Source of the DNA: a virus
Reading direction: 5' to 3' (one strand)
Length of the DNA: 64,000 bases
Virus genome (UHGV): UHGV-0084588
The position numbers and the translations under genes were made by a program. Under the pieces are notes generated by a model. That model saw nothing but the letters and a program-made list of their open reading frames with translations. It was not told where the DNA came from and did not search any database. Shown here in pieces: positions 7,878 to 54,418 of the stretch. Numbering within the stretch: the first letter of the stretch is position 1; every line of letters starts with the position of its first letter.

Positions 7878-7890
7878 CAAAAAATTCTCC

Positions 7891-15398: not shown

Positions 15399-16136
15399 AT
15401 GAGAGAATTATTAGACGATATCTTTACTAACACCAGTTTAGAACTTTCTTCTACCGTTGTTAACGAACTATTAAAACAATCGCAACCTGCTAAGTTAATC
15501 GATGCTGGAACAATTAAACCTGAAGATTATCCAGACAGTGACGTTATCGACTGTATGATTGACGAATACGTGATAGGCAGTTACGCCAACCGCGTCTTCT
15601 TCGTTATTAATACCGAAACCAGTGTCATGTTAATCTATAAGTTGATCAGTGATGCCGAACTTGAAGTTGTGGCTGACCACATTCGTCTTCTTGCGAACAC
15701 GCCTACTAGTATCGATGATGTGCTTATTGGGAACGGTTGGGCTTTACCACCACTATTCTCTTACTTCCCTCTGTTTAGAAATGGGATAGGGTTACTCCGA
15801 AATGCAGAAAAGCTTCCCGATAACGTCGAGTTATCACTGCTTGGACCCGGCATCGATCTTTGTCCATTAGAAGACGAGGGCACGCTATATGGTTTGCGCA
15901 TCTATGTTTCTGTGTTAAAGGGTTACCGCGTTATTGAACTGATTGCATCCGACTTAGCAAAACAGATCCCAGATGTGGAAACGATTTCTAAAGCCACCCA
16001 CCTGGTTGAGATTAACTCAGACGATCCCTTATTGAAATATCACGAGAAAATTGATCTTCGTAAAATCGCCACGATGAGAGGGTGGAGTTGTGCTGAGATT
16101 ACGAAGGACTATCTGCTGTTAATTAAAACCGCGTAA
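15399..16136 (+). CDS. Hypothetical protein, member of tandem paralog family (C-terminal GW motif)
   Basis: 245 aa; C-terminus ...RGWSCAEITKDYLLLIKTA resembles the C-termini of the next three genes. Confidence 0.5.
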   Translation: MRELLDDIFTNTSLELSSTVVNELLKQSQPAKLIDAGTIKPEDYPDSDVIDCMIDEYVIGSYANRVFFVINTETSVMLIYKLISDAELEVVADHIRLLANTPTSIDDVLIGNGWALPPLFSYFPLFRNGIGLLRNAEKLPDNVELSLLGPGIDLCPLEDEGTLYGLRIYVSVLKGYRVIELIASDLAKQIPDVETISKATHLVEINSDDPLLKYHEKIDLRKIATMRGWSCAEITKDYLLLIKTA

Positions 16137-16166
16137 TTAAGAAAACCGAAAAAAGGAGAATATACC

Positions 16167-16721
16167 ATGTTTCAAACTGAACTGAAAAATGAAATTATCC
16201 AAACCCTTGAAAAAGGCGTAGGCGAACATTTCTTTGTCCGTCCTTATACCGTACTGACCAATACCATTATCCAGCCAGGTGCGATGATAGTAGGGGTAAG
16301 TGTACAAGCTGTAGAGGAAGCCCCGCTGCGTCGTAACATCACACGTAAAAACCATATTCCATTTAGAACGGGTTTTACAAATTACTTTCAGAGCTTACTG
16401 AAAGATAGCGTTTGGAAAACAGGCAGCTTCTTCCACGAAGGGAAGACTTCCACGCTGGTTTATAAAGAGAACACCAAGTATCTGGTTGATTTTCTCTTAG
16501 CGCGTCAATACGATTTCTTTCCTTCACCCACCGGTCTCACCCCAGACAATCCGAGTAAGCTGTTAAACCAAGACGAAGCTGAAGCACTGCGTGCACAACT
16601 GAGAAAAGAAGGTTGTGATGTCGATGACCATGAAACCTTAATCGGGGTTGCTAAAGCACACGGTTGGTATACCGTGCGTGTATTTGGGCGTCAGATGTTG
16701 TTCTTAGCTTATAACGTTTAA
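16167..16721 (+). CDS. Hypothetical protein, tandem paralog family member
   Basis: 184 aa; AAAGGAG RBS; C-terminus ...AHGWYTVRVFGRQMLFLAYNV. Confidence 0.55.
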   Translation: MFQTELKNEIIQTLEKGVGEHFFVRPYTVLTNTIIQPGAMIVGVSVQAVEEAPLRRNITRKNHIPFRTGFTNYFQSLLKDSVWKTGSFFHEGKTSTLVYKENTKYLVDFLLARQYDFFPSPTGLTPDNPSKLLNQDEAEALRAQLRKEGCDVDDHETLIGVAKAHGWYTVRVFGRQMLFLAYNV

Positions 16722-16732
16722 AGGATGGTATC

Positions 16733-17860
16733 ATGCATATCTGTCATAACGCACCGTCGCACAAACTTTATCTTGAATTGCTTTTCGAGGACTACAAGAA
16801 AGGGGTGCCGAAAATATTACTTAGCATCCCGCCTGATACGCAAACTGAATTGTTCGGTCGCGTTTTTGGTTGTACCGTTAACGCTTTGCCAGAACCAATC
16901 TGTGCGCCTGTGGATAATTGTGTTTTCGACGAACGAATTGAGGATTTTCAATTCACCTTTTACGTAAACGATTCTTTACTGTACGATAAACTCTATGTTC
17001 GTGAGTTGAAATCAAATCAGCGGTTAATGTACCGCGTCTATCCGCCCCACAGAGGGTCGATACTAGAGTATAAAATCAGACGGCTACCTTACGAGGGTGT
17101 GAATTTACTCGACCAGCAGGATATGGCTTTTCTGGAAGAACTCTGTGGATTTGAAATTGAGAAGATTCACGTAACCCAGGAAATATCCCGAAACGTACCT
17201 AGTCGTCATACCCCTTACGGTGGGTTTCCGTACGAGTTCACCGACACAGGACTAAGGCTCGTAACCGAATTTAACGACGTAATGTATTACGCAGTGTGTA
17301 TTGAACGTAAAGTAGTGGAGAAAGAAATGACAAGTACATTGAAAGAAGAATTAGCCCAATTCATTCGTGATGTTGAAGAGAAAAGCAAGAGCGATCACAT
17401 TTTCTCACAACGTTATCCTGAACTTATTGACGAAACCACCGATAGTGTCGTCGATGGTATACGCATTTTCCCAAGTGGTCTTGCAATTTACCGACTGCCT
17501 AGTGTTAATCAGCTTAAAGTCATGGAAATGCTAAAAGACGTTTTAGCAGAAGCAGGTTGGGAATATCGTTTCGATTGCAATTTCGAAGGGATGGCGTTAT
17601 TCGTTACAAAGAAAAATTATACGTTGTCAATCGATCTGCCCAAAAGTCAATATTACAGTTTCTTCCCGAAAGCGGATGACCGCACTGAAAAAGAACCTGC
17701 GATGTTACTTGATGCGGCAGAGTCCAATACGCTAATGATACATCTGCGGACGATTGATAAAGAGTTAACTACCAGTCATTTAACGACGATCGGTAAAGAT
17801 TACGGTTGGAAATCTGTCGAACCGTATGGCAGTCAGCTACTGTTTGTTGCTGACCTCTAA
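16733..17860 (+). CDS. Hypothetical protein, tandem paralog family member with internal duplication of the GW motif
   Basis: 375 aa; two copies of the motif: ...AGWEYRFDCNFEGMALFVTKK (internal) and ...YGWKSVEPYGSQLLFVADL (C-terminal). Confidence 0.55.
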   Translation: MHICHNAPSHKLYLELLFEDYKKGVPKILLSIPPDTQTELFGRVFGCTVNALPEPICAPVDNCVFDERIEDFQFTFYVNDSLLYDKLYVRELKSNQRLMYRVYPPHRGSILEYKIRRLPYEGVNLLDQQDMAFLEELCGFEIEKIHVTQEISRNVPSRHTPYGGFPYEFTDTGLRLVTEFNDVMYYAVCIERKVVEKEMTSTLKEELAQFIRDVEEKSKSDHIFSQRYPELIDETTDSVVDGIRIFPSGLAIYRLPSVNQLKVMEMLKDVLAEAGWEYRFDCNFEGMALFVTKKNYTLSIDLPKSQYYSFFPKADDRTEKEPAMLLDAAESNTLMIHLRTIDKELTTSHLTTIGKDYGWKSVEPYGSQLLFVADL

Positions 17861-19429: not shown

Positions 19430-19891
19430 ATGAAATTTTTTACTTCCTTTTTAACCATCCTCTTAACGCTGGGTCTCAATACTGCACACGCAGCAATCAA
19501 TAGCTGGGAACAAATCCAGTCTCCAGACCAAGCCATCTACGAAATCGAAGACACTGAAGGCAACAGCCTCTCTATCAATTGCAGTACAGAAACCGCCAAT
19601 CGTAAATTTTACGGGCACAATGTTTGGTATTACGGAGAACCTGCAGGGGCAACAAACGCTGAGGATAACGCGCTCGATATTGTCGTAAATGGTAAAAAAT
19701 ACCGTATCCCTACCATCGACGGTAGCGACCGTTCAGAACAAGCCTGGGCGGATTTCATTAAAGCGGTCGGTGGGGCAAACCATTTTAGCTTGCTTATTAA
19801 CGATAACGTGGCAGCAGGGTTTACCGTAGAAGGCGAACGCCTTAACGAAACGTTTTTCCAGAACTGTGGACACAGCCGTCCTAACAAATAA
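19430..19891 (+). CDS. Secreted/periplasmic small protein (signal peptide)
   Basis: 153 aa; N-terminus MKFFTSFLTILLTLGLNTAHA is a classic Sec signal ending AHA; Cys present; AAAGGAG RBS; preceded by terminator plus promoter-like motif. Confidence 0.55.
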   Translation: MKFFTSFLTILLTLGLNTAHAAINSWEQIQSPDQAIYEIEDTEGNSLSINCSTETANRKFYGHNVWYYGEPAGATNAEDNALDIVVNGKKYRIPTIDGSDRSEQAWADFIKAVGGANHFSLLINDNVAAGFTVEGERLNETFFQNCGHSRPNK

Positions 19892-20324: not shown

Positions 20325-20810
20325 ATGAAACGTTTACATACGCTGATGTTCTTTCTGGTTTTCTTGTTTATCGGTGCCACACCAACTGTAGATGCGGCCT
20401 CCGTAGACGAATTACTTACCTGTGATGGAAACGCTTGGGAAGGTCAGCCAAATGCGTGCCCGAACATCAACGACTTGTACGATACCGATAAGTCATTTAA
20501 AGCTGTTGTTGATAAAACACTAGACCCGGTGGGACTGGATGGTATGTTCGGCTCTAAAGGTTACATGGATGGTCCTGGCGGTAACATGTATCCGGTAAAC
20601 ATCAACAACAAAATCTGGATTGAAAGTGGTGGTTGTAAAGCTAATGCTTGTGGCTGGGAATACATCGTAACGCTATACAACCCACACACCAAGAAACTCG
20701 TCGGTTATTACTACAACATCGACCCCGGTTATCTGATTTGGTTCGGTGATATCGGTGTTGCTGAATTCGCTTACCTGGTTAAGAAATACGCGGAACAATC
20801 TAAATACTAA
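20325..20810 (+). CDS. Secreted protein with Ivy-like CKxxxCG motif (possible periplasmic lysozyme-inhibitor fold)
   Basis: 161 aa; signal peptide MKRLHTLMFFLVFLFIGATPTVDA; ESGGCKANACGWEYIVT resembles the Ivy loop region (recalled E. coli Ivy: SACKPHDCGSQRIAV), but the loop His is not conserved. Confidence 0.5.
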   Translation: MKRLHTLMFFLVFLFIGATPTVDAASVDELLTCDGNAWEGQPNACPNINDLYDTDKSFKAVVDKTLDPVGLDGMFGSKGYMDGPGGNMYPVNINNKIWIESGGCKANACGWEYIVTLYNPHTKKLVGYYYNIDPGYLIWFGDIGVAEFAYLVKKYAEQSKY

Positions 20811-22233: not shown

Positions 22234-22842
22234 ATGAACGAAATTACCTTAGTTCGTTTTCTTGAAGCGATGCAAAATGCAGAGCGTTTTTCGCATACGC
22301 CTTTATTCATCGACTTAATGGAAGAGGAAGTAGAGGGCTTCCTGGCGTATCCACGCTTACGGGAGTATTTTAAACGTAAAACGCCGAATGCTTACGAAAA
22401 ATTGGTTTACGCACTTGAGAACAGTTCAACATTGTTAACGACGCCTTTCAAGGCGTTGGAGGCTTTAGACCCGGCTGGTACCACAAGTATCCCACAACGT
22501 GTTGTGTTCTACTATATCGACCACGATCGAATTAAAGCCGATGTTGTTAACTGGATCTCTGAAAACGCAGTTCCAGAAACACGCACTTTTAATCTCTGTC
22601 CTGTAGAAGAAGGGTGGAAGGTCGGCAATCACTATTCTTATCCATACCAATCCATTAAATCACCGTTTTTATACCCGGTTTATCTGGACGACGTTACGCC
22701 AGGAAATTGCATTCCGGTAACAAACCTGATCTGTGCACTGACAATGGAAGTCTTAGCCACAAAGGCGGGACAGGTTTGGGTAGAAAACGCGAAGAACATC
22801 GATTATTGGACTTCAATGGGTTATCACCCATATACCAAATAA
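22234..22842 (+). CDS. Hypothetical protein (202 aa)
   Basis: AAAGGAAAG RBS; flanked by terminators; no motif recognised. Confidence 0.5.
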   Translation: MNEITLVRFLEAMQNAERFSHTPLFIDLMEEEVEGFLAYPRLREYFKRKTPNAYEKLVYALENSSTLLTTPFKALEALDPAGTTSIPQRVVFYYIDHDRIKADVVNWISENAVPETRTFNLCPVEEGWKVGNHYSYPYQSIKSPFLYPVYLDDVTPGNCIPVTNLICALTMEVLATKAGQVWVENAKNIDYWTSMGYHPYTK

Positions 22843-22847
22843 CGTTT

Positions 22848-22890
22848 GGGAGAACCTTCGGGTTCTCCCTTCTCTGTTTTTTTTTCTTTT
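22848..22890 (+). terminator. Intrinsic terminator
   Basis: GGGAGAACC-TTCG-GGTTCTCCC followed by a long T tract. Confidence 0.7.
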
Positions 22891-22921
22891 TACACCACAC
22901 TCCGTCTTTATGGAGGTGGGT

Positions 22922-25426
22922 ATGCTAAAAGTTGAACGCATTATACTCAAAGGTTTTACGGGGATGGGATTACATGAAATTGAAACTTTCGATTTCACTA
23001 TCCAGTCTCCAACAACAATTATCCTGGGTGGGAACGGTTGCGGGAAAACCAGTCTACTGTCTGTATTCTTACCCTTAGCACCGGCTAAAACTGAATTCAG
23101 AGACGGCGGTTCTTACACGAACTACTGTTTAGTTGGTGATCAACGGTATCGATTCAAAGTTGCCCGTAAAGGTAACTCTTTGGTTTGCGATATTGAAAAT
23201 CTGACCACGGGAGCAAAGATCGTCGAGCAAGGTAATGCGAAGGTCTACAACTCCCGTGTTGAAGAAATCACGGGTATTACGAAAGAAATTAAAGAACTAT
23301 TAAATGGTGATGTTTTGTTAACCGATGCGGGAACCGAATTACGCCGTAAATGGTTTTACCGTTTAAGTACCTCTGATCTCACATACGCGTTAGGGTTTTA
23401 TCAACGTTTGCGTAAAAACCTTACCGCCTTAAATGGGGGTATTGAAATCACCAGTCGCAAGATTGCCGAATTACGGACGCGTGTTATTGAGAACGAGGAA
23501 GAACGACAACAATTAGCAACGAGATTAAAAGGTCTGGAATCGGATTTACGTGAACTGAACCGAGAAATCGAACAGTTGCCAGGATTAAATCGTGCTGTCA
23601 CGATCGAAACAATCCAAGCGTTATTAAACGGTTTGGGTCCAACCATCGACGCAATATTACAACATCGTGGTGGGTTGCCTACTGATGAACAGATACTGGT
23701 CGCCCGACAAAATGAAGCGACAGCCCGCGAAGCCGTCGTTTCTACCGAAACAGAGGTATCGATGTTGAATAAAGATTTATCGCTATTGATGGATGAGTCA
23801 ACACGACAAGACTACCTGATGCGGAATCACGAAGGTCTCAAGAATACACTGGCACGTTTACGTGAGTTACTTACCAAGTGGGACACCGAACATCTCTTTC
23901 CAGGTTTATTTAACGATAACGTTAATTTAGACCAACTTCGTGCGGCTACCGATGCGCGTGTTTGGGGACAACGGTTGGGGACAACACTGGACGCTATTCA
24001 TTCAACCGAGAAACTCAATGTTTTGGAAGAACGTCTTCTGGTGATGGATCAAAAAACCGCAGGATTACGGGATAGACTCCAGCGAGTGGAGAACGTTTTA
24101 CAGAATTTAAATCACGAGCGTAACCACTACTTAGAAACGGCAGAAGTGGATTGTCCGCAGTGTCGGTTTAAGTTTCGGCCAGGTGTTACGCGTTCTTTAC
24201 CTGAACTCGAGTCATCGATTCGTGGACAACAACAGCAGCGGACGGAACTGCAAACGCAGTTAGAGACTTTATTACGCGATCGTGTTGAATTAGAATCTGA
24301 TGTAACTTATATGCGGCAGGTTCGTGAGATTGTACTGACGTATTCAAAAGACCCTGTATTGAGCATGTTCTTTAAGCGTTTGCAAGAACGTAACGTTTTC
24401 ACAGAGTCTCGCGAGCAGTTCGGGAGTCTATGCGCAGCGTTTGACGGTGAGTTGTACTCTGCTATTGAGTACCATGAAACCCGACAACGGTTAGTGAAAG
24501 CGGAAAAAGAATGGCAGGATGCCGTGGCGGCCGTTGGTAACGTCGATGGTGCTTTACAACAAAAGATCGCCTTCCAACAGTCACGGTTAGGTAAAGCCAC
24601 AGAGATGCTCTCAATGCGTCGTAGAGAGCACGAACTGGCTAACACGACACTTACCTATCTAGTGAATGTTAAACGTGCTGTAGATGATTTCAGTGCGTTA
24701 TTCGAACGGTTAGAGAGTGATGTTAAGGTTACTTTGACAAATACGGTCGTCGAGGAGCTCTTACGAGTGCGGGAAGGGAAGCTGGATGCTTTTACAACTG
24801 CACGCGAACGTTATCGTCAGATGGAAAACGAATTGAATCAGCTCAACAGTTTGGAGCGCGAACTTACAGACTTACAAGCCCAACAGTTCAATAACAAACT
24901 GATGATTCAAGCCTTCTCGCCAGAAAAGGGTGTACTTAGAAAGTATTTTTACAACGCTATCGTTAGAATCACAGAGTTAATGACGCGTTATATCGAACAG
25001 GTCTGGACGTACCCCATGCGCGTTATGCCCTGTGATCTCACTGACGGTGATTTGGATTATACTTTTCCTGTCCAGCTAAAAACGCACCCTGAGCCTGTTC
25101 CTGACGTGCGTAAAGGGTCTAAGGCACAGCGTGCTATATTTAATCTGATGTTCAGACTGACTGCGTACAAAGCGTTGAAGTTGCATCAGTTTCCGTTGCT
25201 TTTGGATGAGCCTTCGGAAGGCATGGACGAGGAGCACCGTAATAACCTGGTCGGCTTTATTAAAACGTTAGCAAACTCGGGAGAATTTTCACAGCTGTTG
25301 GTAGTCTCCCACGAAGCCGAGGTTCATTCTAAACTTAATGAAGCATCGTACTGTGTCATCGAACCGGAAGGAGTGACATTGCCTGCGGTGTATAACGAAG
25401 GAGTAAAAATTGTTTATGCAAACTGA
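22922..25426 (+). CDS. Rad50/SbcC-like (SMC-type) ATPase
   Basis: Walker A ILGGNGCGKTSLLS near the N-terminus, long charged coiled-coil-like middle, C-terminal Walker B/D-loop LLLDEPSEGMDEEH and VVSHEAEV. ATG at 22922 after GGAGGTGGG; the track start 22910 is an alternative codon. Confidence 0.7.
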   Translation: MLKVERIILKGFTGMGLHEIETFDFTIQSPTTIILGGNGCGKTSLLSVFLPLAPAKTEFRDGGSYTNYCLVGDQRYRFKVARKGNSLVCDIENLTTGAKIVEQGNAKVYNSRVEEITGITKEIKELLNGDVLLTDAGTELRRKWFYRLSTSDLTYALGFYQRLRKNLTALNGGIEITSRKIAELRTRVIENEEERQQLATRLKGLESDLRELNREIEQLPGLNRAVTIETIQALLNGLGPTIDAILQHRGGLPTDEQILVARQNEATAREAVVSTETEVSMLNKDLSLLMDESTRQDYLMRNHEGLKNTLARLRELLTKWDTEHLFPGLFNDNVNLDQLRAATDARVWGQRLGTTLDAIHSTEKLNVLEERLLVMDQKTAGLRDRLQRVENVLQNLNHERNHYLETAEVDCPQCRFKFRPGVTRSLPELESSIRGQQQQRTELQTQLETLLRDRVELESDVTYMRQVREIVLTYSKDPVLSMFFKRLQERNVFTESREQFGSLCAAFDGELYSAIEYHETRQRLVKAEKEWQDAVAAVGNVDGALQQKIAFQQSRLGKATEMLSMRRREHELANTTLTYLVNVKRAVDDFSALFERLESDVKVTLTNTVVEELLRVREGKLDAFTTARERYRQMENELNQLNSLERELTDLQAQQFNNKLMIQAFSPEKGVLRKYFYNAIVRITELMTRYIEQVWTYPMRVMPCDLTDGDLDYTFPVQLKTHPEPVPDVRKGSKAQRAIFNLMFRLTAYKALKLHQFPLLLDEPSEGMDEEHRNNLVGFIKTLANSGEFSQLLVVSHEAEVHSKLNEASYCVIEPEGVTLPAVYNEGVKIVYAN

Positions 25427-25595
25427 TTGGTTCCGTCGTTTTATGGACGCGGCGGGGTTTGGTTTCATGTCCATTCTAGCGGTTCTTTATGTCATGTTTT
25501 GCGTGGTGATGATTTTATGGGTAGTTTCATCTTATCTGATTAAACTATCGTGGGGTTCAATTTGGCGTCAACGTGAATGCGAATGGCGGAATTAG
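25416..25595 (+). CDS. Small membrane protein (about 60 aa)
   Basis: Track ORF; one strongly hydrophobic helix (FGFMSILAVLYVMFCVVMILWVVSSYLI); overlaps the ATPase 3' end. Confidence 0.35.
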   Translation: MQTDWFRRFMDAAGFGFMSILAVLYVMFCVVMILWVVSSYLIKLSWGSIWRQRECEWRN

Positions 25596-25606
25596 GAGAA
25601 GGGAAT

Positions 25607-25696
25607 ATGGTTGAAGGGGTTCTGTTAACACTTGGTGCGATGTGGTTAATCGGTAAAGGTTTAAACTTGCTGGTTAAACAACACAGATGGGCGTTT
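25607..25696 (+). CDS. Possible 29-aa hydrophobic peptide
   Basis: AGGAGAAGGGAAT-ATG; MVEGVLLTLGAMWLIGKGLNLLVKQQMGV; below the track size cutoff; speculative. Confidence 0.2.
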
Positions 25697-25762
25697 GAAG
25701 ATTAAACGCCCAAATAATCCGGAAAATACCCTCCGGCGTGAGGGTATTACTAGGAGCAGAAA

Positions 25763-25891
25763 ATGACCTCGATAAACACTACGAATGTAGCGATATCCGC
25801 ATTATACGATGCGGAACTTTCATGGGGTGGATTAATAATCACCACGGCCATATTAGCCGCAGCGGCATTCGTCATCGCGCGTTGGTTTTAA
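25763..25891 (+). CDS. Possible 42-aa tail-anchored membrane peptide
   Basis: TAGGAGCAGAAA-ATG; MTSINTTNVAISALYDAELSWGGLIITTAILAAAAFVIARWF; preferred over the overlapping 67-aa track ORF, which lacks an RBS. Confidence 0.3.
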   Translation: MTSINTTNVAISALYDAELSWGGLIITTAILAAAAFVIARWF

Positions 25892-25916
25892 TTTTACTTT
25901 TTTGCGTCTCTAAGGT

Positions 25917-26366
25917 TTGCAAATGGAAATTTATTTGTTGAACGCATCTTCTAAAGTCGGCGAACGACAAGCTGCCGATTTACTCAAACTACACTACCGT
26001 TACTTGGACCACCAGGCTACATTACTAAAAATCAAAACGTCGGTACCGAAATTAAAAGCTCGACAACTGATCGAAGGTAACTGCATAGTTCTGGTGTATC
26101 AGGATGATGTCGCGGTAGGATACTGTAGTTATCGGAATCGTAACGGTTCACTTAAGATACGTTCGGTATACGTGCTCCCAGACTATCGTCAGCGGGGTGT
26201 AATGAAAGAGATTTTCAAAGCAATTGCCGCCGATGAAGTTTTCGGTGAAATTGTTACTGGCATGTATGCGAAATGTAAAGAAGCAAAAGAGTATTTCATC
26301 CGACGCGGTTATCAGGCGGTTTACTCACACGATCGTGAGTGGGTCGATTTTAGCAAAACATTCTAA
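25917..26366 (+). CDS. GNAT-family N-acetyltransferase (putative)
   Basis: 149 aa; motif-A-like VLPDYRQRGVMKEIFKAI in the expected position for the acetyl-CoA binding loop. Confidence 0.5.
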   Translation: MQMEIYLLNASSKVGERQAADLLKLHYRYLDHQATLLKIKTSVPKLKARQLIEGNCIVLVYQDDVAVGYCSYRNRNGSLKIRSVYVLPDYRQRGVMKEIFKAIAADEVFGEIVTGMYAKCKEAKEYFIRRGYQAVYSHDREWVDFSKTF

Positions 26367-26432
26367 AACAATAAAAGCTCTCTTGGCGTACCTCACTATG
26401 AGTGTGAGAAATTTACGTCAGGAGAGCTAATT

Positions 26433-26678
26433 ATGTTAAAATCGTACGGAGTGGGTGGTTTGGATACGAGTATTTGTTGGAAAGAATACGAACGTGCAAA
26501 AGCGTTCTTACAACATCCCAATGTAGGGACAATAGGTAAGGTCTGTTTCGGCAAACCTACGTTGACAGCTTGTATCCAAGGGGCTTTAGGAACGTTGCCA
26601 CCCGAAACACATTTCGAGCCTGAGGAGAATACGAATGTTCACAGAGAACCCATCAATTTACGGCATACCGTTGAATGA
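26433..26678 (+). CDS. Hypothetical protein (81 aa)
   Basis: CAGGAGAGCTAATT-ATG RBS. Confidence 0.4.
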   Translation: MLKSYGVGGLDTSICWKEYERAKAFLQHPNVGTIGKVCFGKPTLTACIQGALGTLPPETHFEPEENTNVHREPINLRHTVE

Positions 26679-27003
26679 AATTGACATTCTACAAATTTGT
26701 TATCAGTGCGACGACTTTGGTAACACGCAGGTAACAGAGCTAGTTAAGCTTTTAGGTTACTTACCTGAAATCGAGCTACCTTTTGTTAAACCCAGCTTGG
26801 TTCGTCGTGCATCGTGTCGCGAAGCTTATTTGTTGTGGAAACACAATATTTCAGTAGAGAAGGTCTGGGACCGCATGAACGATCATCAGTTCCGTGAACA
26901 GGTTGTGCACACGCTCAATTTGGCACTGACTATGCAACGGCTGGGCTTACAACACGAAGGTTTAGAAGCGGCGGTCAAACAATGGATTACAAAAAATCGC
27001 TAA
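26635..27003 (+). CDS. Hypothetical protein (122 aa)
   Basis: GGAGAATACGA-ATG RBS; overlaps the upstream gene by 44 nt. Confidence 0.45.
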   Translation: MFTENPSIYGIPLNEIDILQICYQCDDFGNTQVTELVKLLGYLPEIELPFVKPSLVRRASCREAYLLWKHNISVEKVWDRMNDHQFREQVVHTLNLALTMQRLGLQHEGLEAAVKQWITKNR

Positions 27004-27090
27004 TGGGTAAAACATATATCGCTATACTTGTCGAGCTATCAATCGGCGGTACACGTTTTAATACTACACATCAACTACGGCCGATTCGTT

Positions 27091-27588
27091 ATGTTAACGG
27101 TACGTAAAGAATCTGAAATTGGTAACGATCTTTTTAATGCGCCCGAAGACTATAAAGTCGTTACCATTAACTGTGTAGGAGCAATGGGTCGCGGTATTGC
27201 GCTGGCGTGCCGTGAACGCTACCCCAACCTTTATCAAGATTACCGTAAGCGGTGTCGCGAAGACGAAATTAAGATTGGAAGTGTTTACGTTTACCCTGAT
27301 GAAAAGTGCATCTTGCTCCCCACGAAAACACATTGGCGTTTAAAGTCCCAGGTTTCTTATGTTACTGCGGGCATTACCGCATTAGCAGATTGTATTGAAG
27401 AACTGGATACCAGCGTTGCTATCCCTCCACTGGGAATGGCAAATGGGTGGTTAGATTCCTGGGAAAGACAAGAAATCTTCTTGTGGCTTTACAAAAAACT
27501 TGAACCGAGGAGGCAACGCTACACGTTATACTTACCCGATAAGCTGTACCGAGAAGCAGAGTCATTAATTCCAAACTCTTTTAAATAG
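27091..27588 (+). CDS. Macro domain protein, TARG1/OARD1/DarG-like (putative ADP-ribose hydrolase)
   Basis: VVTINCVGAMGRGIALACRERYP ... LPTKTHWRLK ... VAIPPLGMANGWLDSWE aligns by eye with recalled TARG1 segments ([22 protein letters not shown] ... KKRASHKPT ... LSMPRIGCGLDRLQWE). Track start 27028 is TTG; first ATG is 27091. Confidence 0.6.
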   Translation: MLTVRKESEIGNDLFNAPEDYKVVTINCVGAMGRGIALACRERYPNLYQDYRKRCREDEIKIGSVYVYPDEKCILLPTKTHWRLKSQVSYVTAGITALADCIEELDTSVAIPPLGMANGWLDSWERQEIFLWLYKKLEPRRQRYTLYLPDKLYREAESLIPNSFK

Positions 27589-27604
27589 ATATTATCATTA
27601 GGGC
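27586..27604 (+). promoter_or_regulatory. Promoter-like motif ATAGATATTATCATTAGGG
   Basis: AGATATTATC core shared with 37068 and 46181; immediately after the macro gene stop, upstream of the SLT gene. Confidence 0.35.
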
Positions 27605-27688
27605 ACACAACAAAGGAGTATTAGCTGTCCGCGCCGTCATTTCGTCTTACGGAATACGGAAATGTATAAATCCAACTGGAGAAACAAA

Positions 27689-28387
27689 ATGTTTCGTATC
27701 TTCTTTCTTTTACTGGTAACACTTTTCGCGTTTAACGCACAGGCGTCAACGTCAACGCCGCAAACTAAACATCAGCGTGAATTTACACAAATCCAACATC
27801 GGTTCGAAAAGGTCAGTCCGTTAATTGTGGAAATCTCACGAAAGCAAGGCGTTGATCCTAAGCTGATGATTACGCTGATTTATCGCGAATCGCGTTTTGA
27901 TCCCAAGGCTTACAACAAAAGCACACGAGCGCACAGCCTAGTACAGATGCTTCCAAGTACCAAGCGCAATCTGCTAAAGCTTTATGGAAAAGAATTAGGT
28001 CTTAGTCAGAACGCTGATTTGTATAATCCGCGTAACGCTGTTTTGCTGGCTACCGCGTATGTTAAACATCTTGAGAAGGGGTTAACCAAACGACTCAAAC
28101 GCAAGCCCACCATGGCTGAAGTTGCGTTAGCTTACCACTGGGGTGAAAGTGGCGCTCACACGCGAATCAAAAGCAAATCTCGAGCAGCACAACGAGAAAT
28201 GGCAGGCTTTATGAAAGACGCCGCGTTCTATAGCGCGAAAATCGATGTGCCTGTTGTTGTGGGCTCGGCCCCACGTCAGCTTGCGTTTGCGAAGAAAACA
28301 CCACGTCAGATTCAATTGGCGGAAGTTAGTAAAATTTGGGATACGATAAACACGAGTTTTCCAATCAATAGAGGAGTTACCCTTTGA
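27689..28387 (+). CDS. Secreted lytic transglycosylase (SLT domain), candidate endolysin
   Basis: Signal peptide MFRIFFLLLVTLFAFNAQA; SLT catalytic region LIYRESRFDPKAYNKSTRAHSLVQMLPST (E-S ... S ... A ... LxQ pattern). Alternative upstream ATG at 27662. Confidence 0.6.
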   Translation: MFRIFFLLLVTLFAFNAQASTSTPQTKHQREFTQIQHRFEKVSPLIVEISRKQGVDPKLMITLIYRESRFDPKAYNKSTRAHSLVQMLPSTKRNLLKLYGKELGLSQNADLYNPRNAVLLATAYVKHLEKGLTKRLKRKPTMAEVALAYHWGESGAHTRIKSKSRAAQREMAGFMKDAAFYSAKIDVPVVVGSAPRQLAFAKKTPRQIQLAEVSKIWDTINTSFPINRGVTL

Positions 28388-28893
28388 GCATCGTTGTAAC
28401 CGATTGGTATAAAGGCATTACAAAAGCCGCACAACTAACCGCGAAAGATATTTACGGTATCGTCCGAAGCAGCATCGAAGACGAGATTAAATCGGATGAA
28501 GAATTCGCAGAGAAACACGAATTTTACGATGCTTTACCTACAGCATTCGGTGATGACGAAGAAGAAGGTTTAGAGTTTGACTGGAATGTCAACCTTGCCT
28601 TGCTGTGGATTTGTGGTTTACGTCCAACGGTAAAAGAAACCGAAGAAGGGAAAGTCTTGCTTTGGAATTTTACCGGACAGTATAACCGTAGCCTAGTCTT
28701 TAAACAGGCGTATATGGACGCTACTGTAGAACTTCAGAAACTGCTACTTGGCGAAAACACATACTGCCAGCGTAGTTTTCTAACGATTCTGGAAAAACTT
28801 GTGTTAACACACAAAGTCTGGCGTAAAGAAGACGCCCCAGAGCACATGTTCATTTTAGAGTACGCTGTCATTCCAAATCAGCCGTTCTTCTAA
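28384..28893 (+). CDS. Hypothetical protein (169 aa)
   Basis: Track ORF with TTG start overlapping the SLT gene stop; acidic; terminator follows. Confidence 0.4.
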   Translation: MSIVVTDWYKGITKAAQLTAKDIYGIVRSSIEDEIKSDEEFAEKHEFYDALPTAFGDDEEEGLEFDWNVNLALLWICGLRPTVKETEEGKVLLWNFTGQYNRSLVFKQAYMDATVELQKLLLGENTYCQRSFLTILEKLVLTHKVWRKEDAPEHMFILEYAVIPNQPFF

Positions 28894-28897
28894 TCTC

Positions 28898-28938
28898 TAC
28901 CCCTTACCCTTTACGGAGTAAGGGGTAATTTTATTTTC
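28898..28938 (+). terminator. Intrinsic terminator
   Basis: TACCCCTTAC ... GTAAGGGGTA 10-bp stem followed by ATTTTATTTTC. Confidence 0.6.
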
Positions 28939-28959
28939 ATTCCCTAAAGGAACAGAGAT

Positions 28960-29439
28960 ATGATAAAATTCATTTGGCGTTACCCAACACGTTTTTGGTT
29001 TGTGGTGCTTGAACTGTGTATGGTTCTTGTAGCGGTTACTTTTATCGATGCACCTGCCTCACAGTTGACCATTTTCTGTCTTTTCGTGGCAGTTCCTGTA
29101 TGGGTTATTGCGAAGGCTATTAAGTTCGCCATGGTGAGTTGGGCGAATTATACGTGTCCGTATAAACCTAGACAAATCATGAACTGGTTAATGTTTATTG
29201 AAGAACGTTTACCGGCGCAACGTAAATTACTGGGCTGGTCGTCAATGTTAGATATTGCGCTAGAAACCAATGCAAAGTTCCCCGGCGCGAAAAACCCGTA
29301 TTTGCTGTTGGCGGTAATTGTTGCGCAACAAAAACTGGTAGGCGATCGTTGGTTGCCAGAAGAAGCGAAAGCGTATATCCGTAAACATCCAAAAGCTTTT
29401 TACTCGGTAGGTCAATGGCGTAACTTACCACTATTTTAA
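28960..29439 (+). CDS. Membrane protein with two N-terminal TM helices (holin-like topology, unproven)
   Basis: 159 aa; FWFVVLELCMVLVAVTFI and IFCLFVAVPVWVIAKAI hydrophobic segments; sits downstream of the SLT gene. Confidence 0.45.
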   Translation: MIKFIWRYPTRFWFVVLELCMVLVAVTFIDAPASQLTIFCLFVAVPVWVIAKAIKFAMVSWANYTCPYKPRQIMNWLMFIEERLPAQRKLLGWSSMLDIALETNAKFPGAKNPYLLLAVIVAQQKLVGDRWLPEEAKAYIRKHPKAFYSVGQWRNLPLF

Positions 29440-29492
29440 CTTTTTACATAACCCTTAGTTGATTTGAACAAACCTAAAAGAGGACTATTAAA

Positions 29493-30425
29493 ATGACTTT
29501 TCCATCTGAAGTAATTTACGAACTGGCTAACACTCTACGTCGTCGTTATAGCTACCATATGCTGCAAACCAGCGTAGGTCCAACCGCTGCTTTTCTGCGT
29601 AACCATTTCCTAGGCAGCAATCAGTCTTCAATTACGCAGGAAACGATTTTCTCTATCGATCGTACCACCGATATTCTTCCGATTGACTGTGCAATTGCGG
29701 TTCAAAATGGGGATACGTTCAACTTCGCCATGGGAATGCGCCATACAACCGTTACTGTTGACCCAAGCGTGGGGATCGAACATTCTTTCATGCGTAATCC
29801 GTATCCACTGTCGGATAACTGGTTCGTTGTTGTAGAACAAGGCGTGAATAAGTACGAAGTTGTTGCGGCGCACGACGAATCTTTCTTTGGTTTGGGGGAG
29901 ATTTCACGTCCCCTGGAAATTGCTCTCGAACTTCGACAGGGTAATATCGGATTAAATGGGGGTGTTGTCTACTTCATCCTGAGCAACTGGGCGCATGTGA
30001 GCCACGTCCTGAGAAAAGCTGACGCAACGTTCCATGCAACAAAAGTAAGTTACTTCTCCGCTGAGAATAAAGTTCAAGACGAAGAAGAAACAGTACCTGG
30101 CACAGAAGTCGCCGTTTGTGAAAACTACGACGATCTGAAATCTGTACTCGTTAAGCGTGATGTTTTCGAATCGTTAAACCTGGATTTCCCTGGTGACGAA
30201 AATGAAATATCCGTAGCTGATCTGGTAGAAGCATTGTGTCAGAAAGACCAAGCTAACGAAATTAGCGACGAAGAAGCGGAACTCTTCCAAGTTCAACAAC
30301 TCGTCAGCAAGGTTATCGGTGGCCAGGAAATCGTTGACACCCTTATGGCTTTACCGCCGAAGAAACGTACTCAAAAGTACATTCGTGAACTGGTTCTTGA
30401 CAAGCTGGGCCAAACCAAAAAATAA
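29493..30425 (+). CDS. Hypothetical protein (310 aa), paralog of 30487..31035
   Basis: Shares MxFPSE N-terminus and the VYFI(L/F)..W..V motif with the next gene; acidic C-terminal tail; same AGGAGTATTAAA-ATG type initiation region. Confidence 0.5.
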   Translation: MTFPSEVIYELANTLRRRYSYHMLQTSVGPTAAFLRNHFLGSNQSSITQETIFSIDRTTDILPIDCAIAVQNGDTFNFAMGMRHTTVTVDPSVGIEHSFMRNPYPLSDNWFVVVEQGVNKYEVVAAHDESFFGLGEISRPLEIALELRQGNIGLNGGVVYFILSNWAHVSHVLRKADATFHATKVSYFSAENKVQDEEETVPGTEVAVCENYDDLKSVLVKRDVFESLNLDFPGDENEISVADLVEALCQKDQANEISDEEAELFQVQQLVSKVIGGQEIVDTLMALPPKKRTQKYIRELVLDKLGQTKK

Positions 30426-30433
30426 TCTAAGAC

Positions 30434-30466
30434 CCCTACTCCTCCGGGAGTAGGGTTAATTCTTTT
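30434..30466 (+). terminator. Intrinsic terminator (CCCTACTCC family)
   Basis: CCCTACTCC-TCCG-GGAGTAGGG followed by TTAATTCTTTTT. Confidence 0.7.
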
Positions 30467-30486
30467 TCCATCTTAGGAGTATTAAA

Positions 30487-31035
30487 ATGTTTCCATCGTC
30501 TGAATATTTAACTCATCTGGCTTACGGTATTCGCCGTGGTTCTGTTTTCCGCACACGTTTAAAGGATATAAATTTCCTGGCTAATTTCTTATATAACCAT
30601 TTTGGTGATGGAACTAACGTTTACAAAAAGATCACCTCAACACAACTTTATTCCCTTATAGCGGCGTCTGAAATCGTACCTACAGATATTTGGCGATTCA
30701 AACGTTATAACGGAGATATTACAATCAGTTTTCTTGATCATTCCCCTATTACCGTTGAAATCGCCGATCGTATTGACATTAATAGTGAAATGTCTGGTTG
30801 GAAGATTCTGTTTGATTGTGGCAATCGTTATGCGGTACTTGGCTCCTCTGATGAACGTGACTTCCCATTCGACAGGCCCTACTATTACCTTAGCGAAGAT
30901 GATTTCCCGGATAAAGAATCCAATATCTATTTAAACGGGGATACCGTTTACTTCATTTTTCGTACTTGGAACGACGTTGCTGCTATGATTGCTCAAGGCG
31001 TCATCGATTACCGTAAGCTAGAAGTCGACATTTAA
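30487..31035 (+). CDS. Hypothetical protein (182 aa), paralog of 29493..30425
   Basis: MFPSSEY... and DTVYFIFRTWNDVAAMI resemble the upstream gene; flanked by CCCTACTCC-type terminators. Confidence 0.5.
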   Translation: MFPSSEYLTHLAYGIRRGSVFRTRLKDINFLANFLYNHFGDGTNVYKKITSTQLYSLIAASEIVPTDIWRFKRYNGDITISFLDHSPITVEIADRIDINSEMSGWKILFDCGNRYAVLGSSDERDFPFDRPYYYLSEDDFPDKESNIYLNGDTVYFIFRTWNDVAAMIAQGVIDYRKLEVDI

Positions 31036-38394: not shown

Positions 38395-38919
38395 GTGGAT
38401 ATTTTAATTCAGCTTCGTAAGAAAACAACCATTGCCACGCCGATAGCGTTAGAGGAGAAAATCTCTGGCGCGGTTGCACGCAAGCTCTGTGGTGCCCACG
38501 GCTTTAGCGACCATCAGGAGCGGGTCGTTACTGCCGCCACATTACACAACTTACGACACACAGTTCATTACTGTTTAGTTGACAACGTCACCATCACTCT
38601 TGATGATAACGTAAAGGTCGACCAACTGCGACGCGAAATTGTCCACAAGATCGAGTCTTACAATAGACGTTTCGATCGGGCGTGTGCGCGTTTAACTGAT
38701 GACGAGGCTCTACGAAAACGTTTGAAACTTGAAATTGAGTATGCGGCGCAACGTTACGGGATTGGCGGTACCGAACCGTGTCTGACTGAACAAGAAATCA
38801 CGTTAGCAATCGAGGTTTATACCACTCTCTGCTGCGTCATCCTAAAAGAGACCAACCACGAAATTACAAAAGCGTTGTTAAACACCGCAGACAAACTCTC
38901 CCCAATTTTAGGACAATAA
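38395..38919 (+). CDS. Hypothetical protein (174 aa)
   Basis: GTG start after AAAGGAGTATAACC. Confidence 0.45.
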   Translation: MDILIQLRKKTTIATPIALEEKISGAVARKLCGAHGFSDHQERVVTAATLHNLRHTVHYCLVDNVTITLDDNVKVDQLRREIVHKIESYNRRFDRACARLTDDEALRKRLKLEIEYAAQRYGIGGTEPCLTEQEITLAIEVYTTLCCVILKETNHEITKALLNTADKLSPILGQ

Positions 38920-38920
38920 A

Positions 38921-39406
38921 ATGAACGTAAATGCAATTATCAATCTCTCTAATAGCGACATTGTCCACGAGTTTCTGAACCACTGCGATCGCACAGAACA
39001 GTCTATCCGTAACTTGTTAGCTCCGAAAACAGTGGATGCCATTTGGATAGCTTCACAGGCAGCGGGCGTTATCGTTGCAAGATATCGCGCGACATTGCTA
39101 ATGAATCTGGACAATTTCTTCGATCAGCCAGGGCTTATTACATGGACTTCTATCGGGCGTCGGTTTTACGACATCCGTATCGAAACCCTACGCTCGATAA
39201 TTAATGGCTGGCACAACGGGTATATGCCTGACGTAACAGTACCCTACACTGCTCCCGAATGGCGACGCTTTTATAGTCAGATATGGAGTAATGAAAGCGT
39301 TTATCATGAAATAGTGGCACTTATCAGTGCCGACCAAAGCCAACTTGCATACCAGCTATGGGAGTGGCTAAAAGCTAATTATCCTGATTACGTCAAAATC
39401 GACTAA
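38921..39406 (+). CDS. Hypothetical protein (161 aa)
   Basis: Track ORF; terminator 39412..39445 follows. Confidence 0.45.
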   Translation: MNVNAIINLSNSDIVHEFLNHCDRTEQSIRNLLAPKTVDAIWIASQAAGVIVARYRATLLMNLDNFFDQPGLITWTSIGRRFYDIRIETLRSIINGWHNGYMPDVTVPYTAPEWRRFYSQIWSNESVYHEIVALISADQSQLAYQLWEWLKANYPDYVKID

Positions 39407-39465: not shown

Positions 39466-40392
39466 ATGTATTTGTACAAAAGTAAAAAAGTAAAAGGTAT
39501 TAAAGACTGCCTTAGACAAATGGGGAGTCAGCATCTAGAAAATGTCATGGAAGAAAATCAAACAAAAGAAAATCCCGTCTCGAAGTGGATAAAAAAGAAT
39601 CGTAAGCATTTAACTAATGCCTTTATACCCTACGACGCTGAGTTAGGCCTCAAAGATCCCCGTTCTCTTCACGCTCAAACATTGGCAATTGGATGGCTAT
39701 ACGGTGGTGCTTCCTTAATATCCGATCGAGCACTTAGAGAACTTGTTTTCGAGACTGAGATGCCCAGTAAATTCCCTGAAGAGTGGTTAGACTTTATACC
39801 TACTTGGACTGTAGCAATCGATGTAGGTAAAGAAGATGAGACTTTCTTTCTCGGTTATCGAAAAAATAGGAATAGAAGGTTTATTATAATCGCTACAAAT
39901 ACTGATTACGGGTTAACAGAAGGCGTTACCACGATCGCCACCTGCTCGTTAGAGATATGTAGTGTTGGAAACGGGCTTGTTGAAATCGATTATACGACTG
40001 GCGTACAGACCGAACAAGAGAAGACGTTATGGTTATCACTGGCTAAGACCGCCATATCGTTGATATTTCTCTGTACGCTAATCCCGCCTAATCTCAGAGG
40101 GTCTTTCAATGACATTAAGTTCAAAGAAATCAAAAAGAATGGTAGCATAAGTCACGAAATCAAACCTCGTGAACGTGACGTTAAAATAGACATCACGCCA
40201 GGACAAGTGAAATATCTAAAGGGATTTAACACCGACTTGAAAACCATGGAAGGTATCAAACACGCCAAGGCTGCACATATTCGTCGCGCACACTGGCGCA
40301 GATATTGGGTCGGTCCAAGAGATGGGGAAAGGAAGAGAAAACTTTACTGGATTCCGCCTACATTTGTCCGTGGCTACGTACCCCACAATTAA
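39466..40392 (+). CDS. Hypothetical protein (308 aa), paralog pair with basic Trp-rich C-terminal motif
   Basis: C-terminus AAHIRRAHWRRYWVGPRDGERKRKLYWIPPTFVRGY; internal GWLYGGASLISDRALREL; AGGAGAAT RBS. Confidence 0.5.
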   Translation: MYLYKSKKVKGIKDCLRQMGSQHLENVMEENQTKENPVSKWIKKNRKHLTNAFIPYDAELGLKDPRSLHAQTLAIGWLYGGASLISDRALRELVFETEMPSKFPEEWLDFIPTWTVAIDVGKEDETFFLGYRKNRNRRFIIIATNTDYGLTEGVTTIATCSLEICSVGNGLVEIDYTTGVQTEQEKTLWLSLAKTAISLIFLCTLIPPNLRGSFNDIKFKEIKKNGSISHEIKPRERDVKIDITPGQVKYLKGFNTDLKTMEGIKHAKAAHIRRAHWRRYWVGPRDGERKRKLYWIPPTFVRGYVPHN

Positions 40393-40417
40393 GCTAAAAG
40401 TGTTTAGGAGCATTAAA

Positions 40418-41317
40418 ATGATAGCGAATAATAGACTTTACGGGAAAGCGCTAAGACGCATGAGCGAACAGATAGAAAAAGCGCACCAAACAATTCACGG
40501 ATTAGACCAGTGCCGTTTTATTCGGTTCATTAACGAGCATAAACGACAAATACCCGTAACGTTTATGCCAGTTAAAGATCCGACTTATCGAGAGTATGGT
40601 GTTACAGAACAGATTCCTAGACTGATTAAACAGTCCCTGGGTCTAGGGTGGCAATACGCTGCTGTTGAAATCATCTCGGATGAAGAACTGATGGCGCTCT
40701 TAGCAAAAACTGAGAGACTAAAAAATATCCCGTACTTCTGGATAGAAACCATCCCTTCATTTACTTTCTCGGTTACCGTAAATCTCGACGAAAGCCCAAT
40801 CACGTTATTTATCGGAAGACGTCTTTACGAAGGCGAAGAAGTTCTCTTTGTGATGTCATGCGAAGAACGTGAAGAATCGGTATACATGGAGTTTGAGATT
40901 TACAAAATCGATAAAAGCGAAGATGATTTCGTCGAGCTAAAACCGCTCCTTACTTCGGTTAAAGAGAATCAACGACTACTCGACGCCGTCTACATCGGGC
41001 TATATCTTTCGTCACGAATTAAACGTACTGAACGTGAGAAGAAAGAATTTCGTGGAAGAACGATTCGTTATGTTCCTGATACAGAGATTCGCCCACGTAG
41101 TGAAGCAGTCGTTTTAGACGTAAGTCCGGTACAATGGGAAGATATAGAGCAGCAACGCAAGGAAGGACACGAGGTTTGTTTGGCAATTTATTGCGCAGCA
41201 CATATCCGTCGTGCTCATTGGAAGCGTGTATGGTGTGGTAAAATGTCAGAAATGCGCTGGCGCGAATGGCGATGGATAGCGCCAAGCTACATCTCTGGAT
41301 TTTATCGTGGGAAATAA
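40418..41317 (+). CDS. Hypothetical protein (about 300 aa), paralog of 39466..40392
   Basis: ATG at 40418 after TTAGGAGCATTAAA (track start 40322 lies inside the upstream gene); C-terminus AAHIRRAHWKRVWCGKMSEMRWREWRWIAPSYISGF; internal GWQYAAVEIISDEELMAL. Confidence 0.5.
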   Translation: MIANNRLYGKALRRMSEQIEKAHQTIHGLDQCRFIRFINEHKRQIPVTFMPVKDPTYREYGVTEQIPRLIKQSLGLGWQYAAVEIISDEELMALLAKTERLKNIPYFWIETIPSFTFSVTVNLDESPITLFIGRRLYEGEEVLFVMSCEEREESVYMEFEIYKIDKSEDDFVELKPLLTSVKENQRLLDAVYIGLYLSSRIKRTEREKKEFRGRTIRYVPDTEIRPRSEAVVLDVSPVQWEDIEQQRKEGHEVCLAIYCAAHIRRAHWKRVWCGKMSEMRWREWRWIAPSYISGFYRGK

Positions 41318-44072: not shown

Positions 44073-44372
44073 ATGCGTTATCAAACGGAGATTGTGGAAC
44101 GCTTAAGTGAAGGATTGGCAAGTGTTAATTTAGAAACAGCGGCCGAATTTCGTGAAGCCTTCACTCTTCCGTTTCCCGATCTGGAATCCTTTTGTTTAAA
44201 GGTCGCTGAGTATTACTCGAATCTATTAGTACGTTACGGGTATGCGCCAGTACGTTCCGAACTTCCTGAAAACACGGAAGCTATCAGCTACTGGATTGAC
44301 CTGCTTGAAGCAGAAACGTTATCCAATCTACGTAAGGCGGTAGACAATGAAACTCGAACCAGCGCGGCGTAA
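44073..44372 (+). CDS. Hypothetical acidic protein (99 aa)
   Basis: AAGGAGTCATC-ATG; preceded by GGGTAGGG/CCCTACCC hairpin. Confidence 0.4.
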   Translation: MRYQTEIVERLSEGLASVNLETAAEFREAFTLPFPDLESFCLKVAEYYSNLLVRYGYAPVRSELPENTEAISYWIDLLEAETLSNLRKAVDNETRTSAA

Positions 44373-50797: not shown

Positions 50798-50857
50798 TTT
50801 TTACAGTTGGGAACAGACTTATGTCTCCCAAGACAGCGTTTAAGCGGAGAAACAATT

Positions 50858-54378: not shown

Positions 54379-54418
54379 TGGGGTGCTTATGTAGCACCCC
54401 TAATCCTTATTCTTTTTT
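54379..54418 (+). terminator. Intrinsic terminator
   Basis: GGGGTGCT-TATGT-AGCACCCC followed by a T-rich tract. Confidence 0.65.

Follow-up and report, generated by a model that had tools for sequence, protein, structure and literature searches.

Can a phage protein that resembles the eraser half of a bacterial toxin-antitoxin system, encoded with no toxin beside it, counter host defence by ADP-ribosylation? This question is raised by a 165-codon gene on the plus strand of UHGV virus genome UHGV-0084588, of which a stretch of 64,000 nucleotides (the window) was analysed. The gene begins with an ATG at 27091 and ends with a TAA stop codon at 27586-27588. An earlier reading made from the letters alone (the sequence-only reading) had described the product as a macrodomain of the TARG1/OARD1/DarG class. 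We found that the protein is a DarG2-type macrodomain and that it is an orphan eraser, with neither a DarT-binding domain nor a neighbouring DarT. The gene is very probably an ortholog of AdfM (anti-DarT factor macro), the orphan DarG2-type macrodomain of the nucleus-forming jumbo phages known as chimalliviruses. The idea of an orphan DarG eraser holds, but Morgan et al. had already reported it (Cell Rep 2026, PMC13309987).

A DarG2-type macrodomain with no DarT partner

A hidden Markov model search, which the sequence-only reading had proposed as a check, returned matches to all three relevant models. Pfam Macro (PF01661) scored 26.8 bits against a cutoff of 22 bits, the PADLOC DarG model matched with an E-value of 1.8e-37 (profile positions 7-151 of 329), and antitoxin_DarG, the sole NCBIfam match, reached 2.7e-36 and 125.5 bits (positions 7-154 of 338). 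The DarG models cover residues 12-155 of the protein. When the single sequence was searched against the Protein Data Bank (PDB), the Mycobacterium tuberculosis DarG (MtbDarG) macrodomain 5m3i was the best match (2.8e-26), followed by Thermus aquaticus DarG (TaqDarG; 5m31/5m3e, 3e-21) and then by a Thermosipho DarT-DarG fusion. A family profile of 37 homologs (alignment A1) matched the same proteins at 8.5e-45 (MtbDarG), 2.1e-40 (TaqDarG) and 3.6e-27 (Thermosipho fusion), and the next family, human TARG1, reached only 2.4e-7.

Scores of this size put the macrodomain assignment well outside what chance would give. The fold led to the same result. An AlphaFold2 model was built on alignment A1 (predicted local distance difference test, pLDDT, 93.3; predicted template modelling score, pTM, 0.90) and compared with the PDB using Foldseek. 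Its top match was 5m3e (E 3.6e-13, target template modelling score, TM, 0.86, root-mean-square deviation 1.8 Å, 157 columns). TaqDarG and MtbDarG were ranked first and the DarTG fusion next, with TARG1 and alphavirus macrodomains about six orders behind. Overall, the DarG macrodomain structures superposed with TM 0.84-0.86 and deviations of 1.8-2.2 Å at 34-39% identity, and TARG1 (4j5q) had an E-value of 3.1e-7 and a TM of 0.79. The structure comparison that had been suggested alongside the profile search therefore also places the model closest to the DarG macrodomains.

Two other family assignments were tried and rejected. The protein is not of the TARG1 type: D125 of TARG1 aligns with an invariant glycine, G119, and the profile matched TARG1 at 2.4e-7 versus 8.5e-45 for DarG. 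In the class named by the sequence-only reading, the macrodomain and the DarG type were borne out and the TARG1 type was not. Membership of the MacroD/YmdB/Appr-1''-p phosphatase group was likewise dismissed, as a whole-domain match is absent and 6lft matches the N-terminal part only.

The DarG models matched the protein only with their N-terminal macro half. NCBIfam positions 155-338 were unmatched, and the bit score is half of the 250-bit equivalog cutoff. Because only the first ~150 of 329-338 DarG positions matched, the C-terminal DarT-binding domain is absent. A tblastn search of the whole window with the DarT2 of P. aeruginosa 505 (query sequence from the methods of PMC13309987) returned noise only (best E 8.2). 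When 20 open reading frames (ORFs), either neighbouring or lineage-specific, were scanned with Pfam and PADLOC, no DarT, ADP-ribosyltransferase (ART) or NADAR was found, and the neighbours across 22234-31035 had no match to DarT, DUF4433 or ART. The lack of a DarT partner, noted earlier from the sequence, thus held in both the window search and the scans of neighbours. A bona fide DarG antitoxin was considered as an identity and rejected, since the C-terminal DarT-binding domain and an adjacent darT are both missing.

The start codon is well placed by comparison. A longer frame initiated by TTG begins at 27028. The annotated orthologs of the phages SPN3US and Asesino start at the position equivalent to ATG 27091 and not at this TTG, and a separate gene call on the source scaffold gave the identical 165-amino acid (aa) product.

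Orthology to AdfM and predicted mechanism

Residues important for DarG activity were defined in TaqDarG, where K80A abolishes activity and N22A is the next most damaging change; for W83 a stacking contact with the modified thymine is proposed, and the 117-122 loop closes on ADP-ribose (Jankevicius et al., PMC5179494). We mapped the ADP-ribose contacts from that study to the window protein using alignment A2 (Table 1). All three motifs quoted in the sequence-only reading were found: N27-CVGAMGRGI-A37, LPT-K79-THWRLK and P112-PLGMANGW-L121. Every one of the 37 homologs has G30, M32, G33, G35 and A37 of the first loop, T78 and K79 of the catalytic strand, and P112, P113, L114, G115 and G119 of the second loop; at least 90% have N27. 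Within the enteric-phage clade, at least 90% of the sequences carry W120. One database sequence departs at the active-site Asn: the cluster representative P0001 (90% clusters), 98% identical and encoded on a 1,371-bp ENA contig, has N27Y, perhaps as a naturally inactive form or through an error of assembly.

AdfM proteins described by Morgan et al. include PhiKZ gp104, PhiPA3 gp108, Goslar gp83 and Asesino gp217, and homologs occur in about half of chimalliviruses (PMC13309987). The window protein is 61.6% identical to Asesino gp217 (YP_009290835.1) over 96% of the length, and the two genes are in syntenic positions. Its identity to PhiKZ gp104 is 38% (E 1e-29), and N23 and K78 of that protein align with N27 and K79. 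Purified PhiKZ gp104 strips DarT2-placed ADP-ribose from a TNTC oligonucleotide, with N23A lowering the activity, and it rescues E. coli from DarT2 toxicity (PMC13309987). Deletion of adfM from PhiKZ and PhiPA3 reduced titres by 3-6 logs on DarTG2-expressing hosts, and AdfM loss led to ADP-ribosylated phage DNA with replication and packaging defects (PMC13309987). When fused to green fluorescent protein, AdfM of PhiKZ, PhiPA3 and Asesino localised to the phage nucleus; import is PicA-dependent, and its determinants are surface residues without a known motif (PMC13309987). The DarG2 macrodomains, the closest relatives of AdfM, counteract only DNA ADP-ribosylation (PMC13309987), and the macrodomain alone suffices as the DarG antitoxin (PMC5179494). 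Macrodomains were found in 56% of jumbo phages in a 2022 survey (PMC9503650). The earlier suggestion that a phage DarG-type hydrolase is a plausible counter-defence factor agrees with the assignment as an AdfM ortholog and with the anti-DarTG2 role published for PhiKZ and PhiPA3.

We propose that the window protein would act in the same way. Once the host DarTG2 system is triggered, DarT2 would use NAD+ to ADP-ribosylate thymidines in TNTC motifs of single-stranded phage DNA, and the modification would impair replication and packaging of this DNA; such thymidine ADP-ribosylation by DarT2 has been established in DarTG2 systems, one of them from enteropathogenic E. coli. The macrodomain pocket (loops N27-A37 and G115-G119) would bind ADP-ribosyl-thymidine, and K79, helped by N27, would cut the ribose-thymine bond to give unmodified DNA, as the conserved residues and the PhiKZ enzyme suggest. 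Because the C-terminal DarT-binding domain of DarG is missing, the action would be purely catalytic, that of an eraser and not of a stoichiometric toxin binder. The protein is probably imported into the phage nucleus, the site of the phage DNA, by analogy with the Asesino, PhiKZ and PhiPA3 orthologs, and given a phage that is probably nucleus-forming, the enzyme would most likely act inside that compartment, which the sequence-only reading had not foreseen. Enzymatic activity, protection against DarTG2 and nuclear localisation of the window protein are thus predicted from its orthologs. The count of TNTC motifs, 2243, is close to the 2175 expected and shows no depletion.

Comparison with known systems defines the position of the protein more closely. 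Like AdfM, it is a stand-alone DarG2-type macrodomain of ~160-165 aa that keeps the catalytic Asn and Lys, and the phage is collinear with Asesino; unlike the tested PhiKZ protein, it comes from an uncultivated phage and has W120 and a C-terminal tail of ~15 residues. It shares the fold, the equivalents of N22, K80 and W83, and the phosphate loop with DarG2 of T. aquaticus, M. tuberculosis and enteropathogenic E. coli (5M31, 5M3E, 5M3I), but DarG2 proteins are ~330-340 aa long, with a DarT-binding domain, and belong to a toxin-antitoxin operon, whereas this is a phage gene without an adjacent darT. With TARG1/OARD1 it shares the macrodomain subclass, and K79 aligns with the catalytic Lys (K84) of the TARG1 'ITKK' motif; however, identity is 18-19%, and TARG1 D125 and A90 correspond to Gly119 and Trp82. 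Orphan antitoxin erasers in phages were shown earlier for AdfN, a NADAR protein of T4-like phages that acts against DarTG1 (PMC11825919). AdfN resembles the window protein as an orphan antitoxin eraser that undoes DNA ADP-ribosylation, but it differs in its NADAR fold, its guanine target and the DarTG1 subtype that it counters (PMC11825919).

The locus illustrates how a phage can take the eraser half of a bacterial toxin-antitoxin system and turn it into an anti-defence enzyme, and AdfM in nucleus-forming phages also shows that shielding of the DNA by the protein shell is incomplete. Eraser capture and incomplete shielding had each been established by Morgan et al. 2026 (PMC13309987), and the locus adds no new principle. 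It widens the distribution of AdfM to an uncultivated ~221-kb metagenome phage and to relatives in Salmonella and E. coli assemblies. The result is also of use for annotation, as AdfM orthologs are still labelled 'hypothetical', 'phosphatase' or 'Appr-1-p processing', and the choice of therapeutic jumbo phages against DarTG2-carrying enteric hosts could benefit. What remains new are the clade-specific features and the curious finding that clinical enterobacterial assemblies hold this phage lineage in the form of 'plasmids' or contigs.

Alternative functions and clade-specific features

The names given to its relatives would make the protein a housekeeping ADP-ribose-1''-phosphate phosphatase or O-acetyl-ADP-ribose deacetylase (MacroD/YmdB/Poa1p) acting on small metabolites, for example from RNA repair. 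Orthologs are labelled 'Appr-1-p processing protein' in GenBank, PHROG_335 is labelled 'phosphatase', and the Appr-1''-pase 6lft was matched by the first ~60 residues only (E 0.019 with the single sequence, 2.3e-6 with the profile). However, these labels are inherited generic macrodomain names and not tests, and in the profile search DarG and 6lft lie ~40 orders apart (8.5e-45 versus 2.3e-6). DarG is the only family that NCBIfam reports, the protein has the catalytic Lys of the DarG/TARG1 class, and its ortholog PhiKZ gp104 uses DNA-linked ADP-ribose as substrate; the Pfam scan of neighbours found no Tpt1/KptA or RNA ligase beside the gene. We regard a role in small-molecule metabolism as extremely unlikely. 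A protein substrate is very unlikely as well. A TARG1-like de-ADP-ribosylase would strip ADP-ribose from Glu or Asp residues after an ART, either of a host defence system or of a phage, had modified proteins of the phage or the host; the window protein and TARG1 have the fold and catalytic Lys in common, and about 40% of jumbo phages encode ARTs (PMC9503650). Yet the position of TARG1 D125 is held by the invariant G119, as in DarG, the protein shares 18-19% of its residues with TARG1 and 35-39% with DarG, and no ART was found in the ORFs scanned with Pfam and PADLOC. The restriction of DarG2 macrodomains to reversing DNA ADP-ribosylation (PMC13309987) also speaks against it.

The main substrate might instead be ADP-ribosylated uracil (U-ADPr) in RNA, so that phage transcripts and not DNA would be protected. 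TaqDarG, SCO6735 and TARG1 all clear ADP-ribose from uracil of single-stranded RNA in vitro, but TaqDarG is notably less efficient on U-ADPr than on ADP-ribosylated thymidine, which was read as DNA specificity (PMC13036486). Moreover, the phenotype of AdfM loss is one of ADP-ribosylated phage DNA and of defects in replication and packaging. We know of no bacterial defence based on a U-directed RNA ART, and consider a primary role on RNA highly improbable. A catalytically dead macrodomain, a reader or sponge whose only role is to bind ADP-ribose or some nucleotide signal, is a nearly negligible prospect. W120 in place of Gly in the loop that closes on the ligand, Ala in place of Q34 and the 98%-identical N27Y variant would fit such a protein; on the other side, K79, N27, T78, G115, N118 and G119 are invariant or nearly so in the 37 homologs, a retention that argues for selection on catalysis, and A117 is likewise found in the active PhiKZ AdfM.

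An AdfM-type eraser of DNA ADP-ribosylation is the function that we favour, and several points weigh against it. AdfM catalysis has been demonstrated only for PhiKZ gp104, at 38% identity, and the single experiment in the enteric-phage clade is the localisation of Asesino gp217. TaqDarG Q34 corresponds to A39 here and G122 to W120, the latter replacing the Gly of DarG and PhiKZ AdfM in the loop that closes on ADP-ribose, and the enteric-phage clade carries the extra C-terminal tail. The chimallin gene lies outside the window, and nucleus formation is deduced from synteny and the genome of a relative. Finally, Salmonella or E. coli is suggested as the host only by assemblies with near-identical proteins.

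The enteric-phage orthologs (window, SPN3US and Asesino) are set apart by two features. They have GMANGW where DarG and PhiKZ AdfM have GxxNGG, and they share the tail YLPxxLxxEAxxxIPNxxK, which is absent from PhiKZ AdfM and the bacterial DarG macrodomains. In the AlphaFold2 model, the tail region forms a strand (143-148) and a helix (150-157), and pLDDT falls to 66 at the last residues. The window protein keeps H81-W82 like DarG, whereas SPN3US and Asesino have H-F. It is conceivable, though unlikely, that this branch differs functionally from the PhiKZ enzyme, with W120 and the tail altering the substrates or the tail serving import. Substrates could be broadened or shifted to U-ADPr RNA, deoxyuridine (dU), other base adducts or the products of DarT variants. 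The tail could instead provide a surface that the PicA of this clade recognises for nuclear import.

Phage relatives and genomic setting

Megablast of 25400-29500 against 50,697 phage records gave no match; it took searches at the protein level to place the phage. These found macro homologs in 280 phage records. The closest are from SPN3US-like Salmonella jumbo phages (~66% identity), followed by those of Erwinia jumbo phages, Asesino among them (61.6%). Collinearity with Asesino gp189-gp261 runs over ~60 kb of the window, which is collinear with SPN3US as well; genes conserved in Asesino are typically 45-85% identical at the amino acid level, and UvsX within this span is 80% identical. SPN3US and Asesino have the local gene order of the window, which runs from an SMC-like ATPase through small ORFs, a GNAT, hypothetical genes and the macro gene to an SLT gene, and then to two reverse-strand virion genes, an exoribonuclease and a ribonuclease.

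Asesino was verified experimentally as nucleus-forming, with gp039 as its chimallin, ChmA (PMC11724907). The gp039 gene falls outside the span matched by the window. The exact macro protein is encoded on a 220,786-bp metagenomic scaffold (ERZ28659250), and near-identical proteins are found on 221-227-kb contigs from metagenomes and Salmonella enterica assemblies; contigs of 220-227 kb with these proteins are present in many of the S. enterica assemblies. A search with Asesino ChmA recovered a 58%-identical cluster on 222-225-kb contigs, which was not tied to the scaffold carrying the macro gene. Macro and chimallin genes were found together in a closer relative, NZ_CP173450.1, on one circular replicon of 221,873 bp. 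Its macro protein is 75% identical to that of the window, and in its region 213387-221873, to be compared with window positions 25900-31035, the GNAT-macro-SLT block with lineage-specific downstream ORFs is 75.9% identical to the window at the nucleotide level. The chimallin of this replicon has 58% protein identity to Asesino ChmA and 98.1% nucleotide identity to locus L008. We conclude that NZ_CP173450.1 is a jumbo chimallivirus genome related to the window, and synteny together with this genome makes a strong case that the window phage is itself a chimallivirus.

NZ_CP173450.1 was deposited as 'plasmid' p98232-contig_4 of E. coli strain 98232, a urinary isolate from Egypt, and its macro gene is annotated 'hypothetical protein'. 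Such phage 'plasmids' and contigs in enterobacterial assemblies suggest a carrier state, pseudolysogeny or culture contamination.

The coordinates of the macro gene, its motifs and its conserved neighbours are collected in Table 1, with the mapped residues.

Table 1 Features of the macro locus and mapping of TaqDarG ADP-ribose contacts to the window protein
Feature	Coordinates	Strand	Basis and remarks
adfM-like gene, stand-alone DarG2-type macrodomain, 165 aa (very probable AdfM ortholog)	27091..27588 (stop included)	+	ORF, profiles, fold, orthology
ADP-ribose-binding loop 1, N27-CVGAMGRGI-A37	27169..27201	+	alignment A2
Catalytic strand, P77-T-K79-T-H-W82	27319..27336	+	alignments; K79 codon 27325-27327
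Phosphate-binding loop 2, P112-PLGMANGW-L121	27424..27453	+	alignment A2; matches TaqDarG G117-A-G-N-G-G122
C-terminal tail, aa 147-165, YLPDKLYREAESLIPNSFK	27529..27585	+	alignment A2
TaqDarG T20, T25 here			alignment A2; conserved
TaqDarG N22, N27 here			alignment A2; conserved; PhiKZ AdfM N23
TaqDarG K29, R34 here			alignment A2; conservative change
TaqDarG Q34, A39 here			alignment A2; changed
TaqDarG T79, T78 here			alignment A2; conserved
TaqDarG K80, K79 here			alignments; conserved; PhiKZ AdfM K78 and TARG1 catalytic Lys
TaqDarG H82, H81 here			alignment A2; conserved
TaqDarG W83, W82 here			alignment A2; conserved
TaqDarG G117, G115 here			alignment A2; conserved
TaqDarG G119, A117 here			alignment A2; Ala likewise in the active PhiKZ enzyme
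TaqDarG N120, N118 here			alignment A2; conserved
TaqDarG G121, G119 here			alignment A2; conserved
TaqDarG G122, W120 here			alignment A2; clade-specific Trp
SMC/Rad50-like ATPase, 838 aa	22910..25426	+	Pfam SMC_N 3.2e-8, below the Pfam cutoff, residues 8-812
GNAT acetyltransferase, conserved upstream neighbour	25917..26366	+	Pfam Acetyltransf_1 7.5e-8; Asesino gp212, SPN3US gp075
SLT lytic transglycosylase, conserved downstream neighbour	27662..28387	+	Pfam SLT 4.6e-15; Asesino gp218

The sequence-only reading had placed the gene in an accessory block next to a GNAT and a Rad50-like ATPase. Both neighbours are real, on the plus strand and with Pfam matches; the description as an accessory block did not stand, as the position is conserved by synteny in Asesino and SPN3US. 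We treat the GNAT, SMC-like ATPase and SLT genes as genomic context only and not as functional links. The SMC-like ATPase is 71% identical to Asesino gp207 and 58% to SPN3US gp080. Its best PADLOC match is Lamassu LmuB (8.8e-19, residues 5-807), which may reflect only generic SMC similarity. The GC content of the macro gene (0.438) is near the window mean (0.451, standard deviation 0.03), so recent acquisition is not indicated. A scan of 25400-28500 for sigma-70 promoters gave 5 promoter-like sites against 5.9 expected, which is uninformative, as phage-specific promoters are outside the model, and a terminator scan of the same region found none after the macro gene.

Eight ORFs are specific to this lineage (15399-17860, 19430-19891, 20325-20810, 28960-29439, 30487-31035, 38395-39406, 50444-51433 and 51995-52303). 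They had no tblastn match in the syntenic regions of Asesino and SPN3US, and those scanned had no Pfam or PADLOC family. NZ_CP173450.1, the E. coli 'plasmid', has at least the stretch 28960-31035 in common with the window, and the ORFs at 29493-30425 and 30487-31035 have similar N-termini and may be paralogs.

Elsewhere in the window, two adjacent minus-strand genes (3696-7880 and 7891-12213) encode giant virion structural proteins of 1394 and 1440 aa, corresponding to Asesino gp189 and gp190; these are paralogs, because PHROG families 8078, 7557, 7449 and 2163 are common to both. Two slightly overlapping plus-strand ORFs (39466-40392 and 40322-41317) both match Asesino gp235, at 28% and 25% identity, which suggests a tandem duplication in the window lineage. 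The plus-strand ORF at 44347-45015 is 85.5% identical to Asesino gp240 and had no Pfam match at E<=0.001. It is a putative RNA polymerase beta subunit solely by the annotation of the Asesino record, and the split RNA polymerase subunits of this phage family are so highly diverged that they typically lack a Pfam match. Further downstream, a nucleotide-metabolism block on the plus strand includes a thymidylate synthase (52303-53337; Pfam 6.7e-111) and an ORF (54418-55275) that is 41% identical to the MazG-like pyrophosphohydrolase of Asesino.

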